Sequence record: NC_106514.1
Source of the DNA: Escherichia phage vB_EcoS_ESCO40
Reading direction: 5' to 3' (one strand)
DNA: 64,000 nucleotides
Shown here: in pieces, positions 3,119-63,929 of the stretch
Numbering within the stretch: position 1 is the first letter of the stretch
How the letters are laid out: each line of letters starts with the position of its first letter
The notes under the pieces: generated by a model
The model's database searches: none
Seen by the model: the letters and a program-made list of their open reading frames with translations, nothing else
Told to the model about the DNA's origin: nothing
Position numbers and translations under genes: made by a program

Positions 3119-5908
3119 GTGTTTTCAATCCTACAAGGTCATGCAGGATTTCATCGCGATTTAGCCACAGGCAATTGGCGAGAAGTTAAAGCAGAAGATT
3201 ATCTTTTTGCTAAAAGATTTTCCTCAAAGCATCCTGAAGGTAAACCAGCTTCAATGCCCTTCAAGTTTGATGTAATTGACGAAGTTGATCCTCAAACCCT
3301 AGTAGAAATGCTCCCTCTTATGAGACGTTTAACGTCTGACCCTCATATCGTTGCGGTACGAGGTCGATGTCTTGCACCTAAAAATAATGTGCGGCGTAAG
3401 AAGGGCAACTTTAATGTATCTAATCCAAGTCATATAATCGCAATGGATGTGGATGGTATTGTAGATACAGGAGGTTGTAACAAGTTTGATCTTGTTGGCG
3501 TGGCTCGACATATTATTAGGATGTTAAATAGTATTAGTGAGGATATGTTTCCTCTTGATGCAGGGTTTATCGCTCATGCATCGTCTTCGGCTGGACTAAA
3601 ACCAGGTATCCGAATGCACTTAATACTAGAATCTAATGTTAAAGTTACACAGGGTCAGATCAAGTTCTTATTTACATCTATCAACGAAAGTAGTAGACAA
3701 AAGTATGGCTTTGATATTGCCGACTTAGCTTATTACTCTTCCGTACAGCTCCACTATTTCGCAGATCCTTTATTTATTGATGGTATAGTCGATCCGTTTA
3801 AAGCGGAGGGTGCTTCACGTCTGGTATTTGTTAAAGGCTCAAAAGTAAATTTACCTAATAATCTAGTTGACTATGAAACAACTAGAGGAGAGTTTAAAGA
3901 GGAATTCTACTCTTTACTCGATCAAATTAAAGGTAAAAAAGCTGCCTCTGATAAAGTAGAGGAAACTATCAGTGAGCTAGAAGAGGCTGATGATGGGGTA
4001 TACTTACGTATTATTCCAAAGCTATATCACCGAGCGTTAGAGGATGGGGTAGATTTTGGTTGGCTAGAAAAAGAAATCCGCCCAGCTTTATCAGAATATA
4101 TTGCAACTAAAGATAATAGCCGTAATATTCAGGATTATTTCAATAACGGACGGAAACAGGCATTAAAAGCCTTTGTGAATAACTCTAAGCGTGAGATCCC
4201 TGAAGTATTAAAAGGTATCCCCCTTAAAAAGCTAGAAACTAATTCACTAGAGACTGACAACTTCTTGAAATTAAATACTGTACCACCAGAAGGCTATATG
4301 ACTTTTGTAAAAGCAAGTCTAGGCACAGGTAAAACCACGGCGGTTGTGCGTTGGTTAGATTCAGGGGTTATTAAAGGTAATTTCTTAGCAATTACCAATA
4401 CTAGAGCACTGGTATCTTCAAATGCTAAGAAATTTAGTGCAGGACAATATGATAAGTCTGTAGATATGCTTAATTTTAAGCGTGGTGCTATTGACCGTAT
4501 GTCCACAACTATTCACTCTTTGCATAAATTCAAGAGTTTTATTGGTCAAATTGACGCAATCTTTATCGATGAATGTGATGCAGTAATGAATGACCTATTA
4601 TTCGCTCCGGTTGTTAAGCAACGTCGCGAGTGTATTCAGGTTCTTCGTGATATTCTTGCAACTGCAAAAATAATTATATTATCTGATGGGGATATTAGTG
4701 CAGAAACAATTGAAGCATATGGTTCTTTGATTGAGTTCGATAAACCAGTTGCATTTTACAATCACCACCGTAAAATGCTGTCAAAAGCTCATGCTTATGA
4801 GTTCCCTGATGAATCCAGTATTTGGGTTGCACTTCAGACTTCTCTAGAGATGGGTGAGAAATCTATTCTAGTATCTGATTGTGGCCCGGATGAGCTGAAT
4901 GAGAAAGGTATGGCACTGCGTCGTAATACGGGTGCGTTAGTTAAGGAAATCCATTCAAACTCTACCTCAGATGTGGATATTCGACGTATTCTGGATTACA
5001 CAACTAATGAACTAATTGATCAACAAATTGATTGCTTATTATGTAGTCCATCCGTAACGAGTGGTGTTGACTTTAACTATTTTGATAACGTATTTGTTAT
5101 TACTAGAACTAGTAATCAAGCGCCAAACATGCGTTTTCAAGCAATCAGGCGCGACCGTGGTGCTCAGAATATCTATTATTTTATTGATAAATCCACTAGT
5201 GGGTTCTCTGCTGGTTCTGAACAATATAATATTGATGAAGGTTGGCTGGAGTTAGCACAGCAGTTATATGCGCGTCGCAGGGAGCTAGAATCTAGGAACT
5301 ATACTAGTACTTTACGTTATTACTTGCTTGATCAAGGTGCAACTATTGATATTTTCAGCGAAAGCTGGGGAACTATTGAAGGTGCTGGTAAAGAGTACAC
5401 AGAAGAGCGAATCAAAGCTATTCTGCATTCAACTCCAGATTATTGTGCTCCACGTCATGCGGATGCGTATGAAGCTAAACTACTTCTTGTTCGCTATTAT
5501 CATCTTGAGTCTATTAAAGATGTAACAGTTGAGCATGTTGAACAATATATCAAAGATAAGCCGAATGATCGAGCTGCATTCTTCCATAAGATGCACGAGA
5601 TGTTCTGGGAAGATATTAAGAAGTGTTCAAATGTGACCATTAAACCATTCATAGAAGCTCTGAAAGGTAAGAAGAAGGACTTCTTCCTTAAAACAGGTCA
5701 GAGTGCTAACCCAAAATATGCTAGAATGTATCTTGGTATGATGGGTATTGGTAAAGATATGAACACGGAGAATATCGTAGACTGGTACAGAACCTATTGT
5801 AAAATCGAGTGTATGCCAATTCCTTATAAGTTCATGACTGACGAGGAAAAACATATGCACGATGAAGCAATGTCAGAGCTAGGTGCTAGAAATGACAGTG
5901 AAGAATAA
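3119..5908 (+). CDS. SF2 helicase-domain protein, putative replication initiator / origin-binding-like
   Basis: Walker A GTGKTT and DExD-like IFIDECD in central region; ORF open from 3041 (TTG); GTG at 3119 follows AGGAG by 7 nt; start uncertain. Confidence 0.6.
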   Translation: MFSILQGHAGFHRDLATGNWREVKAEDYLFAKRFSSKHPEGKPASMPFKFDVIDEVDPQTLVEMLPLMRRLTSDPHIVAVRGRCLAPKNNVRRKKGNFNVSNPSHIIAMDVDGIVDTGGCNKFDLVGVARHIIRMLNSISEDMFPLDAGFIAHASSSAGLKPGIRMHLILESNVKVTQGQIKFLFTSINESSRQKYGFDIADLAYYSSVQLHYFADPLFIDGIVDPFKAEGASRLVFVKGSKVNLPNNLVDYETTRGEFKEEFYSLLDQIKGKKAASDKVEETISELEEADDGVYLRIIPKLYHRALEDGVDFGWLEKEIRPALSEYIATKDNSRNIQDYFNNGRKQALKAFVNNSKREIPEVLKGIPLKKLETNSLETDNFLKLNTVPPEGYMTFVKASLGTGKTTAVVRWLDSGVIKGNFLAITNTRALVSSNAKKFSAGQYDKSVDMLNFKRGAIDRMSTTIHSLHKFKSFIGQIDAIFIDECDAVMNDLLFAPVVKQRRECIQVLRDILATAKIIILSDGDISAETIEAYGSLIEFDKPVAFYNHHRKMLSKAHAYEFPDESSIWVALQTSLEMGEKSILVSDCGPDELNEKGMALRRNTGALVKEIHSNSTSDVDIRRILDYTTNELIDQQIDCLLCSPSVTSGVDFNYFDNVFVITRTSNQAPNMRFQAIRRDRGAQNIYYFIDKSTSGFSAGSEQYNIDEGWLELAQQLYARRRELESRNYTSTLRYYLLDQGATIDIFSESWGTIEGAGKEYTEERIKAILHSTPDYCAPRHADAYEAKLLLVRYYHLESIKDVTVEHVEQYIKDKPNDRAAFFHKMHEMFWEDIKKCSNVTIKPFIEALKGKKKDFFLKTGQSANPKYARMYLGMMGIGKDMNTENIVDWYRTYCKIECMPIPYKFMTDEEKHMHDEAMSELGARNDSEE

Positions 5909-6125
5909 AAAATGGGAAACAAGGAAGTTTCCAGTAAAAGAACGTAAGGTTCCTGTTTATGATACTTCGGAAAAGCTATGTAGGGTGGTACCACACAGAT
6001 TAGCTGGTATCCCTAACATATCCGAGTGGTTACTTAAACAACGGAGGACTAGCGTATCCCTCCGCATAGGGTTTGAGTTAGATAAAGTATATGCTGAACT
6101 TTCTTCTTTGCTCAAAGAATCATAA
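5883..6125 (+). CDS. hypothetical protein (80 aa)
   Basis: ORF overlapping the end of the upstream gene; no motif recognised. Confidence 0.35.
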   Translation: MLEMTVKNKKWETRKFPVKERKVPVYDTSEKLCRVVPHRLAGIPNISEWLLKQRRTSVSLRIGFELDKVYAELSSLLKES

Positions 6126-53718: not shown

Positions 53719-53950
53719 TATTATAGTTGCTTTTATTATCGGGATAATCGCGGGAGTTTTCGGAATGACTGCGGCTATTAACAAGCATCGTAAGTATACT
53801 GCGGAAGTATCGCGGGAGATTGCGGAAAGAGAGCGAAAGTTTGACGAGAAACGTGCGGAGTTTGACGAGAAACGTGCGGAGTTTGAGCGGGAGTGGAATG
53901 ATGGTTCAAGAAGTTCTCGGAGGAGATTCAAGATAAATGGCAAATCATAA
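53711..53950 (+). CDS. small membrane protein (79 aa)
   Basis: Hydrophobic helix IIVAFIIGIIAGVFGMTAAI then charged tail with duplicated FDEKRAE. Confidence 0.5.
   Translation: MFSIIVAFIIGIIAGVFGMTAAINKHRKYTAEVSREIAERERKFDEKRAEFDEKRAEFEREWNDGSRSSRRRFKINGKS
53838..53879. repeat. 21-bp direct duplication inside the small membrane-protein gene
   Basis: GTTTGACGAGAAACGTGCGGA occurs twice in tandem. Confidence 0.8.
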
Positions 53951-54434
53951 ACCTCTTCTATCATTAGAAGAATATAAGAAAAAATATGACTATGATCCAG
54001 AGGCAGGTATATTTACTTGGAGTTCAGGGAGTCGTAAAGGTAAACCAGCAGGTAGTAGAAATAGTTCAGGAATATCCCTATCAATGGGTAGTAATGGGTT
54101 GTATAAGGCTCATCGGGTAGCGTATCTATACATGACAGGAGAAGACCCGGGTGAGTTTCTCATTGACCACAAAGATCAAGACCCCTTTAACAATAGATGG
54201 AATAACTTACGTAAAGCAACAAATGCAGAGAATGGAAAAAACTCTTCGGGATGGAAGAATGAGTCTACAGGGGTTAAGGGAGTATATAAACGCGGAGAGG
54301 GAAAGTTCGAAGCAAAACTACGTGTAAATGGTAATAGAATTACCATAGGAACTTTTAAAACTCTTGAGCAGGCTGAAAAAGAACTTAGAAAAGCCAGGGA
54401 GCATTACCACGGTGAGTTTGCAAACCATAATTAA
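53937..54434 (+). CDS. HNH homing endonuclease with AP2-like domain
   Basis: IDHKDQDPFNNRWNNLR HNH motif; GVKGVYKRGEGKFEAKLRVNGNRITIGTF AP2-like segment; paralog of the 19948-20478 product. Confidence 0.8.
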   Translation: MANHKPLLSLEEYKKKYDYDPEAGIFTWSSGSRKGKPAGSRNSSGISLSMGSNGLYKAHRVAYLYMTGEDPGEFLIDHKDQDPFNNRWNNLRKATNAENGKNSSGWKNESTGVKGVYKRGEGKFEAKLRVNGNRITIGTFKTLEQAEKELRKAREHYHGEFANHN

Positions 54435-55813: not shown

Positions 55814-55885
55814 GTTTATAGCTCCAATTAATTTAATAAACTTTTATAGCGGCTATATTTCAAGCCGCCAACCTGATTTATTGGC

Positions 55886-57559
55886 TTACTGTACAAAAAA
55901 TTTGCCGTTCTTAAAGTCGATCAAAGTGCGCTGGCCGTTCGCATAGGTAATAACATGCGTTTGCGTCCAGCTCGACGCGCCAACGTTATAGCCCATGTCC
56001 AGACTACCAGATACGCCAGCGGTATAAACGCCGCCGTAAATGCTGGCGGTGTGAGTGTGCCCCGTGTTTAATTTGCCCAATTTCTTAAATTGCTTCGGAT
56101 TGCCACGGCTCCCGTTAATGCCATTGTGACCGTGTACACCGCACTCAATGCCTGCAATCTTGAAAGATTGATCAGTGGTCAGGAAAATAGCGTTAAATTC
56201 ACAACCTGCAACCTTGCGCAGCGCATAATCCAGCACGTTGAAAGTATCGTCTTTTTCTGCAATAGCTCCGTAAATCGCAGCATTAAGGCGGTGATATAGT
56301 TCCGCGTTGGCTGGATCGTCTTTAATGTTAGCATTACGATCATCAAGCCAACGGGATAACGCCAGATCATGGTTAGATTCAACAATGATCGTTTGAGCAA
56401 AATCGCGCTCCATTGATTCCAGTACGCGCCCGGTATCGATAAGGTCATCCAGAACTTTATCACGTCCGGCGGCGTATTGTTTTGCTAGGAATACACCAGA
56501 AGCGCGGTTGTGATGATTGCGCGATGTAAAATCATGCACGTCATGCACGAATTGATATTTTGGTTTAAGAATATCAACAAGCCCGTAGGTATCACCATGC
56601 CCCCACGACGCAGCGGCGCACTCCTCATCCAATTTTTCGGCGTGTATGTCGCCATATTGCAAGCCTAAAACATGATCGGACGTTTCAAAGCATCCGGCGG
56701 GAGTGGCGCAAATATTCAAATCGTAAAACATGCCGCTTTCGTCCATCGTTTCAAGCTGGCGAACAAAAAATTCACCGTCCTCGTCAAACTCAACAATCAG
56801 CGCACCAAAATTATGTAGCGCCTCGGCCTTTTGCCCTGCCTTTTGCTGAATGTAGTTTTTGAGCGTTGCCGTTCCGGTCGAGTACATACGGCGCACTACT
56901 TCACCTTTTAAAGCTGGGACGCTTTCGGCGGTGATTTTAGCCGCTCCAATTGCCAGACCTTCCAGATTAAGCGCGGTTGCAGTTTCAGCGAATCCAGAAA
57001 GCGGATAATCTGCAGTTGGTAACACGTTAATCTCAGCCATGAAAGCAAAACGGCGATTATTCAAAAACACGTTTTTATTGCAGATATATTTATCAAACGC
57101 AGAATCATATTTGATTCCGTCCGCGCCCTCACCATTTTGAAAACCGTTTTTATTATAAATATACTTGCTAACCAGCAAATCAGCGCCAATAAATTGGGCA
57201 TATTGTTCAAGCGAGGATAAAAAGTTTTTATGCGGGAAAGTATTATTCTGAATCGATGTAATAATAAAGCGTTTACCTTGTTTTACTTCCCAGCTTTCCA
57301 CCGTGCTAGAAATAACTCCAGCGGCTTCAGGGCGGTCATCGTTTTTAATAGCTTTTACAGTTTTTGCCGCTTTTGGTTTCGCTGGTTTATTTGCTTCCAG
57401 CCAATCACAAATAGCGGTGGAATGCTTTGGAGTATCGTAAACCATTTTAGAAATATCGTCACATACTTCCAATTTAGTGGCGCGCAGACGTTTACCATAG
57501 AAATTAAAGTCAGCGGCCATTTTCAGGATAACGGTTTGTTTTTCTGCGGAAATAATCAT
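55886..57559 (-). CDS. A1: pre-early protein A1-like (metallophosphoesterase-type)
   Basis: 557 aa; calcineurin-like motifs GDIHAE, GHGD, NHD, GHTH in the C-terminal half; position and size match T5 A1. Confidence 0.6.
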   Translation of the reverse strand: MIISAEKQTVILKMAADFNFYGKRLRATKLEVCDDISKMVYDTPKHSTAICDWLEANKPAKPKAAKTVKAIKNDDRPEAAGVISSTVESWEVKQGKRFIITSIQNNTFPHKNFLSSLEQYAQFIGADLLVSKYIYNKNGFQNGEGADGIKYDSAFDKYICNKNVFLNNRRFAFMAEINVLPTADYPLSGFAETATALNLEGLAIGAAKITAESVPALKGEVVRRMYSTGTATLKNYIQQKAGQKAEALHNFGALIVEFDEDGEFFVRQLETMDESGMFYDLNICATPAGCFETSDHVLGLQYGDIHAEKLDEECAAASWGHGDTYGLVDILKPKYQFVHDVHDFTSRNHHNRASGVFLAKQYAAGRDKVLDDLIDTGRVLESMERDFAQTIIVESNHDLALSRWLDDRNANIKDDPANAELYHRLNAAIYGAIAEKDDTFNVLDYALRKVAGCEFNAIFLTTDQSFKIAGIECGVHGHNGINGSRGNPKQFKKLGKLNTGHTHTASIYGGVYTAGVSGSLDMGYNVGASSWTQTHVITYANGQRTLIDFKNGKFFVQ

Positions 57560-57655
57560 AGTAATAAAACTCCATTAAAGGGATTAAAAACGTTTGTTAT
57601 TGGCAATATTGCCAGATATAACGCCGCAAATGAGTGGCGTTATAATTTGCAACAT

Positions 57656-57853
57656 TTAACTAATAGGCATTAGGCTGGCACTAACCCCACAAGCAACGGC
57701 GGCGATTAAGCAAAGTAAACCCAACCGCCTTGCTAAATTAGCCTTGCGTTTAAAATAATATGAATCCAGATCATTTTGAAAATAAGCAAACAATAATGAG
57801 GCGGCCATAATAAATAAGCCTAGAATGAGGGATTCAGTAGGGTAAAAGATCAT
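57656..57853 (-). CDS. small membrane protein (65 aa)
   Basis: Two hydrophobic segments (LILGLFIMAASLLFAYF and LGLLCLIAAVACGVSASLM). Confidence 0.5.
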   Translation of the reverse strand: MIFYPTESLILGLFIMAASLLFAYFQNDLDSYYFKRKANLARRLGLLCLIAAVACGVSASLMPIS

Positions 57854-57909
57854 TTTAAAACTCCAGTCAAAGGGAAATTATAGTGGGGAATAATCCCCAC
57901 TAATTAAAT

Positions 57910-58326
57910 TTATTCGCCAGCGGCTTGTTTTACTTCATCGGCAACGCCTAACAGTTGCGCCACGGCGTCCAGCGTTTCCAATTTTGCACTTTCCAGCGAG
58001 GCCAGATCATCGGCGTCTTTGATAATACCGGAATCGATCGCATGTTTTGCAATAACGCGCACATAATGCGCTTTACGAATGGAACTACCGCCGCCAACCT
58101 TGCGAGGTTTATCGCTTTTCTGATACGCTTTCGCGCTGGTCAATTTTGAGCGAACAGACACGGGAGAAGTCGCGCCAACTGTTTTAGCAATCTCTTTCAG
58201 GCCGTCGCTGTTGGCGAACTCTAATCCATTTTCATTGATTAGCTGTTGATACATAGTAACAGCCTGTTGGGTGTTTTCTTCATTCCATGCGAATTTTGCA
58301 GATTTTTCGGTTTTAACGTTAGCCAT
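57910..58326 (-). CDS. hypothetical protein (138 aa)
   Basis: ORF in the leftward pre-early operon; no motif recognised. Confidence 0.5.
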   Translation of the reverse strand: MANVKTEKSAKFAWNEENTQQAVTMYQQLINENGLEFANSDGLKEIAKTVGATSPVSVRSKLTSAKAYQKSDKPRKVGGGSSIRKAHYVRVIAKHAIDSGIIKDADDLASLESAKLETLDAVAQLLGVADEVKQAAGE

Positions 58327-58422
58327 GATTATAACTCCTATTGAATTAATTTAAGGGATAAGATTAACATAATGTTAATCGTTATATCCCCCGAACTACT
58401 GGGGGATATAAAAGTAACACTA

Positions 58423-58674
58423 TTACGCTACAGCTTCAAATTTTTCGTTCCGCTGGACAACCTTTACAACGTCGCCGGATTTAACCCGAACGTTATAAAT
58501 AGTTTTCCCGTTGTTACTCCGTTCCGTTTCAGCATATACCGCATCAATCACATCGAACGGCATAAGCGCCGCGCCTTTGATGCGTTCGGCCTTTCCAGTT
58601 GCCTCATCCGTTTTAGTAACGAAAGGAATAAAAACGGATTGACCAATTTTAGGCGCGGTAATAACGTTTTTCAT
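58423..58674 (-). CDS. hypothetical protein (83 aa)
   Basis: ORF in the leftward pre-early operon. Confidence 0.45.
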   Translation of the reverse strand: MKNVITAPKIGQSVFIPFVTKTDEATGKAERIKGAALMPFDVIDAVYAETERSNNGKTIYNVRVKSGDVVKVVQRNEKFEAVA

Positions 58675-58901
58675 AGTATAAACTCCTAGTTATTTGGGGA
58701 TTGTTCCGCATTACCTGCTAGAAAGTAGCAGGTAATAAGAAAAAATCCGCTCGCCAATATAATCAATTTAAAGAACTCCACTCAGGCCGCTATATCCCAG
58801 TTAGGGGGCGGGACACATTATGGTAAGTGCCGACCGTCAAATTGTATCAAGTTATCGCTCTTATCGAACTGGGTACATCTTAAAGCCTATCGGCTAGGGT
58901 G

Positions 58902-59105
58902 TCAAACAATTTTTTGCAGTTTTTTATGATTTTCTTTCAGGTCAATCATAATATTTCGCCAGATCATTTCCAGACCTTGCTGGCGGCCTTTCTTGTACTG
59001 CGTGAATCTATATCTTACGGATTGTTGAGCTATTGTCAACAATTTTTTAGTATTGCCATCCAATTTTTTGGCTGGTTTACCAGTTATCAAAAGCGTTTGT
59101 TTCAT
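58902..59105 (-). CDS. hypothetical basic protein (67 aa)
   Basis: Lys/Arg-rich ORF; AAGGA RBS 9 nt upstream on the minus strand. Confidence 0.45.
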   Translation of the reverse strand: MKQTLLITGKPAKKLDGNTKKLLTIAQQSVRYRFTQYKKGRQQGLEMIWRNIMIDLKENHKKLQKIV

Positions 59106-59725
59106 ATCTGCGATTCCTTATATAATTGATAAGTTTACCGCCGATAGACTTTAAGATATACCCAATTTTTAAAGAGCGCGGCGGTAAACTTCCCGCCGTT
59201 GTAGTCCGTTGCCGTCCTACGAGATAAATAATAGCAAATACCAAAAATGGCGCAACCTTATTTTTGTAAAGAAACGTAAAGAAAGCAACACGTCCGGCGT
59301 TCACCTAAGTTTAAAGGAAACGGGCGCGCGAATACCACAAAACACAGCAGATAGGCAAGTAATTTTTTCATTTATATTTGCCTTGCCCTACTTGACAAAA
59401 CTTAAAAAGCTCAAGGCGACGATAAACGGCTTATCCCTTTATGATGGCATACCTGAAAATTTTACCGCTTTCTAGGACGTTTTAGGCGGCTTATTTTCGA
59501 CTTAACAAATATTTAACAAAAGCAAAATTGAAAAATAGTTTGAAAAGATATTGACTTTTTAAAATCAAGATTAAACGAGTTATTTTATAAAATTAATTAA
59601 TTGACTTTTATTTGACGTTGTGTATTAGAAAGATAGCAGACTAATAATTGCTAGGATGATAATCATGCTGGTGGATTGTAACAGCCTGAACTATTAGCAG
59701 ACTATTAATCACGGAAAATCTCATT

Positions 59726-59754
59726 AGCCAACTAACTATTTCCTGAGTTATAAT
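59726..59754 (+). promoter_or_regulatory. promoter-like element with T5-type downstream leader (P10)
   Basis: TATAAT followed by ATAAGCATAAATTAATGAGAT matching the conserved leader of the early promoters; weak -35 (AGCCAA). Confidence 0.45.
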
Positions 59755-59805
59755 ATAAGCATAAATTAATGAGATAATAATAATTATAAGAAATCGTAAC
59801 CAATA

Positions 59806-59897
59806 GAAATAATAACTATAAAAATAATAACTATAAAAATAATAACTATAAAAATAATAACTATAAAAATAATAACTATAAAAATAATAACTATAAG
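59806..59897. repeat. 15-bp tandem repeat, about 6 copies
   Basis: AATAACTATAAAAAT repeated head to tail. Confidence 0.9.
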
Positions 59898-59934
59898 AAA
59901 CTATCGGCCTAAGTGAGAACCACTATCATTTAAG

Positions 59935-59943
59935 TTATCCACA
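59935..59943 (+). promoter_or_regulatory. DnaA box (perfect 9-mer)
   Basis: TTATCCACA. Confidence 0.5.
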
Positions 59944-59994
59944 AGTTTATTAACAGCACTTTTTGACTTGACACGATAGGCGGCGATATAAGGG

Positions 59995-60044
59995 CTTATC
60001 CACAGACTTATCCACAGGTTATCCTACTGTATAAATATACAGGG
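59995..60044 (+). promoter_or_regulatory. composite element A: two tandem DnaA boxes plus a LexA-box-like palindrome
   Basis: TTATCCACA at 59996-60004 and 60008-60016, then TACTGTATAAATATACAGGG (CTGT-N8-ACAG) at 60025-60044. Confidence 0.55.
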
Positions 60045-60308
60045 TAGAAAGGTAGTGTTAACAACTGCAATCAATTTTAAGCGGCCTAAATCGCTTTCTA
60101 ACGAGCTAAATGCAGTGGGGTAATATTAAAGTAAAGCCTTCACCCGCCGCCCTGGTGGCTTCGCCGTGTTTTGCTCTTTACTATACCGCTGCGCGGTTAG
60201 CATAAAACTAGGCGTTAGGCAAGGAAAATAAAAAGGTAAAATAATATTTGCCCCTAGAAAGAAAATACCCTTATCATTCACTCACCGATTAACGAGGGAG
60301 TCCAACAA

Positions 60309-62954: not shown

Positions 62955-63064
62955 ATACTGTATAAATATACAGTAGAATAACCTGGGGATAAGTCTGTGG
63001 ATAACGCTTCAAAATGGCTAGGATTCTGTCAAGGCAAATCGTGCTGTTGATAAGTCTGTGGATA
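62955..63064 (-). promoter_or_regulatory. composite element B: LexA-box-like palindrome plus two DnaA boxes, inverted relative to element A
   Basis: TACTGTATAAATATACAGTA at 62955-62974 (one mismatch to the SOS-box consensus as recalled); TGTGGATAA at 62995-63003 and 63056-63064. Confidence 0.55.
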
Positions 63065-63093
63065 ACCTAAATAACAGTGTTTCTCACTTCCAT

Positions 63094-63290: not shown

Positions 63291-63328
63291 TCGCATTCAG
63301 GCGAGCAGGGCAATTGCCCTGCGCTTTT

Positions 63329-63929
63329 GTGCAAATCCGACAATTGCTCCAAGGGTTACGTGCTGGCGTGTATGTGCAAATCCGACAATTTTTGGTAGTG
63401 TGCAAATCCGACCCGAAAAATTTTTATAGTGTGCGAATCCGACAATGAATTTTCCTAAAAACTCCAGCAATCACGAACTGCGTTCGAATCCTGTGGGATA
63501 TGTGCAAATCCGACACGGTTTTTCTAGGATTAAGATGTGCGAATCCGATGAAGTTTTTGTGAGTTCGATTGGAAGGTGTGTGATTGTATGGGTTTGTGGA
63601 GAAGGTGAGAGAGCGAGAGAAATTTGGTGGGCTAGAAGGATGTGGTCGCAGGATTGGTGTGGAGCACCTGGTTTGCGGGGATTTTGGGGAAGAGTTGAGA
63701 TAATTTGGGGAAATTTGAGATAGGTGCAGAAAAAGTAAAATTTTATTAGCAAAATGGGGCAAAATAGCTTGACAAGTGAAAATTCTTGTGGCTCTAAAAA
63801 CTCAGGCAATCATGGGCCTTCGGCCCGAAATAATGCTGCTATTTTCAGGAGAGTAAGAGTTCCTAAAAACTTAGGCGTTTGTGCAAATCCGACCATAAAT
63901 TTCTAGAAACACAATGTGCGAATCCGACA
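63329..63929 (+). repeat. eight dispersed direct copies of a 14-bp motif GTGC(A/G)AATCCGA(C/T)
   Basis: Copies at 63329, 63374, 63400, 63431, 63502, 63537, 63881 and 63916, all in the same orientation, each followed within 12 nt by a T-run. Confidence 0.85.
63575..63730 (+). other. G+T-rich strand-asymmetric tract
   Basis: About 150 nt almost devoid of C on the plus strand (GGTGTGTGATTGTATGGGTTTGTGGAGAAGGTGAGAGAGCGAGAG...). Confidence 0.7.

Follow-up and report, generated by a model that had tools for sequence, protein, structure and literature searches.

In the stretch of DNA analysed here (64,000 nt of Escherichia phage vB_EcoS_ESCO40, NC_106514.1, hereafter the window), four small open reading frames (ORFs) encoding proteins of 67, 83, 138 and 65 residues are, on sequence comparison, almost certainly orthologues of the pre-early genes hdi, 007, A2 and 005 of phage T5, all of them already known. 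The region that holds them is first-step-transfer (FST) DNA of a T5-like phage (Tequintavirus, Demerecviridae). Each of the four gaps that lie between hdi and A1 contains a stem-loop, as do both gaps further down the operon, and comparison of related sequences points to selection for pairing of these hairpins as structures of the messenger RNA (mRNA) strand, rather than as DNA sites or antisense RNA. In terms of gene discovery the analysis adds little, given that four annotated T5 pre-early genes have been found again, two with established functions and two whose deletion and over-expression in T5 gave no phenotype. The residual value lies in the covarying and uncharacterised intercistronic hairpins and in the functionally blank gp005 and gp007.

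The gene identities were obtained by full-length BLASTP comparison of the window ORFs with the T5 RefSeq proteins, together with scans for Pfam and PHROG families (Table 1). The 67-residue protein matches Pfam DUF7416 (PF24188) with E=5e-36 over residues 1-66 and phrog_4718 with E=1e-38. The 83-residue protein matches DUF7177 (PF23801) over residues 1-83 with E=2e-41, at 140.4 bits against a gathering cut-off of 27, and the 138-residue protein matches phrog_1725, a family labelled 'DNA binding protein', with E=3e-51; all homologues of the latter carry PF26822. An earlier note on this DNA had placed the four ORFs exactly, on the minus strand and ahead of the 557-residue A1 gene, but had found no known motif in any of them. 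That second claim does not survive, since all four are numbered T5 genes, three of them with Pfam or PHROG matches at E <= 1e-32, and BLASTP returned a T5 orthologue for each, at 87.7-95.5% identity. Chance ORFs are ruled out by the full-length family matches, the conserved synteny and the experimental data from T5, and nothing counted against the assignment of the four genes.

The location of the genes agrees with their identity. DNA matches to the stretch 57400-59700 are found in 410 T5-like phage records, with identity up to 91.5%, mostly from Salmonella and Escherichia phages of the genera Tequintavirus and Epseptimavirus, and the stretch lies inside the terminal repeat wherever the records annotate genome ends. 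The same layout is annotated in T5 (NC_005859) and in BF23, where a leftward operon runs through 009, 008, 007, A2 (006), 005, A1 (004), (003), 002 and dmp (001). All 35 distinct T5-like loci that were compared keep the order hdi-007-A2-005-A1, even where the A2 of the phage is no more than 55-64% identical. Further down the operon, the dmp product of the window (244 residues) is 96.3% identical to that of T5 by the same BLASTP comparison. Within the leftward pre-early operon, the four genes would make up the promoter-proximal half, which the host sigma-70 RNA polymerase would transcribe directly after the initial 8% of the genome has entered the cell.

Table 1. Coordinates of genes, stem-loops, promoter-like sites and repeats in the window
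Feature	Position	Strand	Details
hdi, T5.008 orthologue, 67 aa	58902-59105	minus	95.5% identity over 67/67 aa to T5.008 (BLASTP)
007 orthologue, 83 aa	58423-58674	minus	91.6% identity to T5.007 (BLASTP); DUF7177
A2, T5.006 orthologue, 138 aa, 14.8 kDa	57910-58326	minus	92.8% identity to T5 A2 (BLASTP)
005 orthologue, 65 aa	57656-57853	minus	87.7% identity to T5.005 (BLASTP); phrog_4820 'membrane protein', E=3e-32
A1, 557 aa	55886-57559	minus	96.4% identity to T5 A1 (BLASTP); phrog_1745, E=4e-243; next gene downstream, same operon
Leader stem-loop	58698-58748	minus	Inverted repeat with 23-nt arms, ~25 nt upstream from the start codon of 007
007/A2 stem-loop	58369-58423	minus	~22 bp paired; free energy (dG) -25 kcal/mol, z -6.2, 0/200 shuffles as stable
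A2/005 stem-loop	57881-57902	minus	GTGGGGA/TCCCCAC, 7 bp at 57883-57900, 9 bp when extended, 4-nt loop; dG -17.6 kcal/mol, z -2.7, 2/200 shuffles
005/A1 stem-loop	57605-57656	minus	~20 bp with small internal loops; dG -22.8 kcal/mol, z -4.4
A1/002 stem-loop, weaker	55830-55870	minus	8-bp GC-rich stem; dG -16.6, z -1.7
002/dmp stem-loop	55380-55408	minus	13-bp stem, then AU-rich tail; dG -24.4, z -3.6
P_H22-like sigma-70 promoter inside hdi	59012..59039	minus	TTGACA, 16-nt spacer, TAAGAT; promoter scan 10/12
P_D/E20-like sigma-70 promoter (name tentative)	58877..58905	minus	TTGACA, 17-nt spacer, TAAGAT; scan 10/12; -35 box overlaps hdi stop codon
39-nt inverted repeat bracketing hdi and its internal promoter	58856-58894 and 59140-59178		Arms 82% complementary, 245 nt between arms
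132-nt inverted repeat pair	59911-60042 and 62958-63089		
Tandem array, eight copies	59776-59896		15-bp AT-rich unit
Duplicated DnaA-box-like CTTATCCACAGA	59995-60017		
TGTGCAAATCCGAC-containing repeat, five copies	63321-63897		Injection-stop region

The claim that the genes are separated by hairpins holds, with a stem-loop in all four gaps, of which those between 007 and A2, A2 and 005, and 005 and A1 fold better than shuffled sequences. The two hairpins that had been singled out are both real, although their coordinates were slightly off: the 10-bp stem TATATCCCCC/GGGGGATATA lies at 58383-58410 rather than 58381-58408, and the stem of the A2/005 gap does not lie at 57873-57891. The former is the top of the larger 007/A2 structure, in which the inner stem of 10-11 bp spans 58382-58411.

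The strongest comparative data come from the 007/A2 and 005/A1 gaps. Among 13 distinct relatives, 96.9% of the cells in the 007/A2 structure are paired, five pairs have changed on both sides, and one position is occupied by four pair types (C-G, A-U, G-C and U-A). None of 500 shuffles attains the observed values, and pairing falls to 41-55% once the partner columns are slid. For the 005/A1 structure, 94% of the cells are paired in 11 sequences that include the most distant phages, seven pairs have changed on both sides, and the covariation score is likewise reached by 0 of 500 shuffles. In the A2/005 stem, a T-to-C change is compensated by an A-to-G change in phages L036-L038, and in L005, L015, L017 and others the gap holds instead a non-homologous hairpin of ~20 bp. 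The leader stem-loop keeps its architecture in the distant phages L035, L040 and L043, with the sequence of the stem replaced.

The covariation shuffles ignore the relatedness of the sequences, hence more weight is placed on the controls with slid partners and on the gaps in which an unrelated hairpin has replaced the whole structure. An Rfam search with the hairpins and the leader returned no family match, the one sub-threshold match (DapZ) falling outside the region. The stem-loops also carry no annotation in the T5 reference.

The same data bear on the idea that the palindromes act at the level of DNA, for instance by binding A2 or proteins of the host, or by serving in the injected molecule as sites of recombination or cruciform formation. 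Conserved repeats and palindromes abound in the FST DNA of T5-like phages, and roles as DNA have been proposed for them, DnaA boxes and an injection stop signal among others (Davison 2020); A2 does bind double-stranded DNA. What is conserved in the gaps, however, is pairing and not the sequence of the stem, as seen from the four base pairs at one position and from the exchange of whole hairpins for unrelated ones, which argues against sequence-specific protein binding. Moreover, G.U wobbles read on the sense strand occur in 26 cells, as compared with 8 cells for A.C, which would be the wobbles of the other strand. An action at the DNA level is therefore regarded as very improbable, and the wobble count favours pairing in the sense-strand transcript.

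As hairpins of a polycistronic mRNA, the structures may be processing or stability elements or leaky terminators, which would set differing expression levels for the cistrons, much as in the early operon of T7, where ribonuclease III (RNase III) sites have this effect. The likeliest roles are those of elements for processing or stability, or of leaky attenuators. The predicted helices in the 007/A2 and 005/A1 gaps are ~20-22 bp long with small internal loops; the stem in the A2/005 gap has only 9 bp. Such an arrangement could explain how the expression of toxic and of essential pre-early proteins is balanced.

Alternatively, the hairpins could be ordinary intrinsic terminators that split the region into separate transcription units. 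A consensus scan flags the A2/005 hairpin, on the plus strand only, and the 002/dmp hairpin, on the minus strand, and terminators predicted by ARNold are annotated in BF23 in the 005/A1 and 002/dmp gaps. No U tract follows the 007/A2 or the 005/A1 stem, though, and the tail after the A2/005 stem, UAUAAUUUCCCUUU, is only partly U-rich. Given that essential genes lie downstream of stems that mostly have no U tract, efficient termination is improbable. Nor is a promoter annotated in T5 or BF23 between the P_D/E20-like site and A1, where the promoter scan gives only weak 9/12 matches; with the essential A2 and A1 downstream and no strong promoter in between, termination can hardly be efficient. 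Stems of ~20-22 bp with internal loops are also more like processing sites in double-stranded RNA. Separate transcription units bounded by ordinary terminators are therefore a possible but rather doubtful explanation.

The case for processing or attenuation has its own weaknesses. In L043 and L044, the most distant phages, the A2/005 gap holds terminator-like hairpins followed by T runs, and a literature search found no data on transcript ends or RNase III processing for T5 pre-early RNA. The stems of the window have no clear U tracts, but relatives have T runs and BF23 has a terminator call, a pattern that would suit termination as well as processing.

The hairpins would be transcribed from more than one start. 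The annotated P-H22 of T5 (4799-4873) maps onto 58986-59052 of the window with 89.6% identity, and this segment contains the hexamers of the promoter-like site inside hdi. P_D/E20 has been reported to overlap hdi in part in T5 (bioRxiv 10.64898/2026.04.02.716235). The second promoter-like site of the window, at the end of hdi, is clear; the name P_D/E20 for it is tentative, given that the P-D/E20 range of NC_005859 (4338-4664) maps to 58535-58851, just downstream, and leaves both hexamers of the site outside. By their predicted promoters, 007, A2, 005 and A1 are fed from at least these two sites. Both strong promoters lie inside hdi or at its 3' end, and hdi must therefore be transcribed from further upstream.

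The hegG gene for an HNH endonuclease, which T5 carries as an insertion upstream of the operon (5411-5929), is absent from the window (59400-60300), and the T5 promoter upstream of hegG (5938-6012) therefore has no counterpart here. The best candidate for a promoter that drives hdi is the sequence TTAACA, a 16-nt spacer and TATATT at 60061..60034. Transcription of the operon would thus start at an upstream promoter and at two strong internal ones. The description of the four genes as heading the operon is consequently right only approximately: hdi needs the more distant promoter, and a T5.009-like stretch also lies upstream.

Upstream of hdi are found this conserved T5.009-like stretch and a mini-ORF of phrog_17446. 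The stretch homologous to T5.009 (59077-59304, minus strand) has 97% DNA identity, yet it has no ATG at the T5.009 start and can be read only within a GTG-initiated ORF of 75 residues. It contains an inverted repeat with perfectly matching 13-nt arms at 59131-59143 and 59179-59191 (within 59129-59199). T5.009 may therefore not be a gene but a structured element that encodes no protein. One arm of the 39-nt inverted repeat that brackets hdi lies in the same stretch, and the other overlaps the -10 box of the P_D/E20-like promoter. In a transcript that begins further upstream, the two arms could form a long-range stem around the entire hdi cistron. The repeat falls within 'Repeat Region 1' of T5 (Davison; bioRxiv 10.1101/866236) and may be the one that carries the name IRA/IRA' there.

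The functions of the four proteins can be judged largely from work with T5. Recently, all 17 T5 pre-early genes were cloned, under the numbering of NC_005859, and 005, A2 and 007 were found to be non-toxic (2026 preprint, bioRxiv 10.64898/2026.04.02.716235), as had been seen for 005 and 007 in an earlier toxicity screen (PMC8201957). T5 mutants that lack 005, 007 or hdi are available, and for A2 there are conditional-lethal mutants. Clean deletions of 002, 005 and 007 are viable, and a T5 mutant that retains only 009, hdi, A2 and A1 still grows (bioRxiv 10.64898/2026.04.02.716235). The earlier suggestion that the genes are pre-early, are expressed first and serve host takeover is borne out by T5, where Hdi blocks division (PMC10714956) and A2 is essential for second-step transfer.

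T5.008 was renamed Hdi after it was found to be toxic, with resistance mapping to G191 and F268 of ftsZ; the toxicity is relieved by FtsZ F268V or by G191 mutations (PMC10714956). Z rings are dissolved by Hdi of T5 both in vivo and in the course of infection, and T5 with Hdi has the advantage in competition (PMC10714956). The window protein would, by orthology, destabilise FtsZ rings and thereby stop division of the host. It is basic, as had been noted, with an isoelectric point (pI) of 10.5 and 16 lysine and arginine residues against 4 aspartate and glutamate residues.

A2 of T5 is a DNA-binding protein, which is dimeric and binds double-stranded DNA. It is essential for second-step DNA transfer (bioRxiv 10.64898/2026.04.02.716235; PMC11879866) and is the trigger of the ColIb abortive-infection system (PMC10644984). 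The A2 orthologue in the window would likewise bind DNA, serve second-step transfer and trigger abortive infection by ColIb. Its structural model (predicted local distance difference test score, pLDDT, 83) shows two helical domains joined by an invariant linker, KVGG...RK.H, which is the most conserved segment of the family (...PRKVGGGSS.RKAHYVR...). A Foldseek search of the PDB gave nothing with E < 0.9, a profile search of the PDB gave no match, and the N-terminal domain gave weak local Foldseek matches, at E about 1, to helix-turn-helix domains of the Myb and transposase type. These matches to the modelled domain are compatible with DNA binding and are no proof of it.

The 007 product is predicted by modelling to be a small all-beta protein with an SH3-like barrel. 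Homologues of the 83-residue protein are found in 529 phage records and in every T5-like locus examined, and are 81-83% identical in Epseptimavirus phages. An exhaustive profile search with DUF7177 against 1.84 billion representative proteins yielded 14 clusters, 13 of which are small phage proteins of 46-100 residues; the fourteenth, a repetitive protein of 1397 residues, was rejected as a false positive. On these homologues, gp007 is confined to T5-like phages. It would be a beta-barrel protein that is dispensable in the laboratory. Some public records name the 007 homologue 'baseplate wedge protein' or 'RecT family recombinase', and these names look wrong. The records with apparently wrong product names are those of BF23 OR083247 (BF23_00004), JLBYU40 OK272480, HMD-P5 PV016700 and Klebsiella phage vB_Kpn_3 MZ079855.

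The 65-residue protein does have the two hydrophobic spans described for it, at residues ~7-25 and 44-62 (two 19-residue windows with mean Kyte-Doolittle values > 1.9). In the 35 loci, 005 is always directly upstream of A1; going by this synteny and by hydrophobicity, gp005, a predicted two-helix inner-membrane protein that is dispensable in the laboratory, may act at the membrane beside A1 and A2. A public record names the 005 homologue 'A1 precursor protein', which also looks wrong.

The earlier note had named genes expressed so early prime candidates for anti-restriction or other functions in host takeover. In its specific form, the proposal is that at least one of the four genes, with 007 or 005 as the most plausible, makes the second-step DNA insensitive to restriction enzymes and to clustered regularly interspaced short palindromic repeats (CRISPR) systems. 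T5-like phages do resist type I, II and III restriction, and CRISPR, at targets outside the FST DNA, the gene behind this having yet to be found (PMC10644984; Davison 2020). Davison had earlier proposed T5p007, which is taken from the gene order to be T5.007, as a candidate for the restriction insensitivity of T5 (bioRxiv 10.1101/866236, section 3.2.1), on the ground that it is common to all T5-like phages, along with dmp, A1 and A2 (bioRxiv 10.1101/866236). The presence of the 83-residue protein throughout the T5-like loci and phage records is in keeping with this ground. Furthermore, the published 005 and 007 deletions were assayed with standard laboratory strains alone, and no restriction assay is described in the preprint (bioRxiv 10.64898/2026.04.02.716235).

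Site avoidance in the FST DNA is as expected if protection must first be made from that DNA. The segment 54500-63950 has 0 sites for EcoRI, EcoRV, HindIII, BamHI, KpnI, EcoKI and EcoBI. By plain counts with no statistical model, EcoP1, EcoP15 and CCWGG sites are about fourfold rarer there than in 1-54500, and GATC is not depleted. The depletion agrees with the classical picture, in which FST DNA alone is open to restriction.

The evidence from the proteins themselves goes the other way, and the suggested function found no direct support. Hdi and A2 have other roles, proven in T5, and none of the four proteins has a Pfam, NCBIfam or PADLOC match to an anti-restriction or defence family at E <= 1. 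With pI values of 7.9-10.5 they are neutral to basic, unlike the acidic DNA mimics. Epseptimavirus, in which gp007 is so well conserved, has been reported as a genus without general insensitivity (PMC10644984). An anti-restriction role for one or more of the four is accordingly unlikely.

A more speculative reading is that the block encodes a pre-early factor for insensitivity to restriction and CRISPR; the candidates are gp007, gp005 and A2, the last of which would coat the DNA as it comes in. A lesser possibility under the same head is that the covarying hairpins are RNase III-type sites that set the ratios of pre-early proteins, which is undescribed for T5. Little credence is given to this reading. 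It would nonetheless matter: the restriction insensitivity of T5 is unexplained more than 45 years after its description, gp007 and gp005 are conserved family-wide in the one segment that must neutralise host nucleases, and deletion mutants for these genes already exist.

Other landmarks of FST DNA known from T5-like phages (Davison 2020, bioRxiv 10.1101/866236) are present in the window (Table 1, last four rows). T5.003 is absent (55814-55885, as compared with T5 1371-1649), as it is from BF23. An HNH/AP2-like ORF lies just beyond dmp, at 53937-54434.

The four genes can be compared closely with their counterparts. Hdi of the window shares with Hdi of T5 its length, its position between the T5.009 region and 007, the P_H22 promoter inside the gene and the overlap with the next promoter; it differs by three substitutions, and the activity has been shown for the T5 protein, so that the window allele would act by likeness of sequence. 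A2 resembles the T5 and BF23 proteins in its size class, position and invariant basic, glycine-rich linker, and is 99% identical to that of BF23; its 138 residues, as in BF23 and Epseptimavirus, differ from the 135 of T5 by a 3-residue N-terminal indel. For T5.007 (DUF7177) and T5.005 (phrog_4820), the family match is full-length and the synteny is the same, with no notable difference.

Comparison with systems outside the T5-like phages is looser. DNA-mimic anti-restriction proteins are strongly acidic. Like Ocr, ArdA, ArdB/KlcA and Arn, the window proteins would be among the first expressed after DNA entry, but they have no match to these families at E <= 1 and are basic or neutral rather than strongly acidic. 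In the T7 early operon, hairpins processed by RNase III lie between the early genes. The T5-like operon is similar in that it is the first operon read by the host RNA polymerase, has several strong promoters and carries conserved stem-loops of ~20 bp with internal loops in its gaps. The two operons have no sequence relationship, and the likeness would be a functional analogy only.

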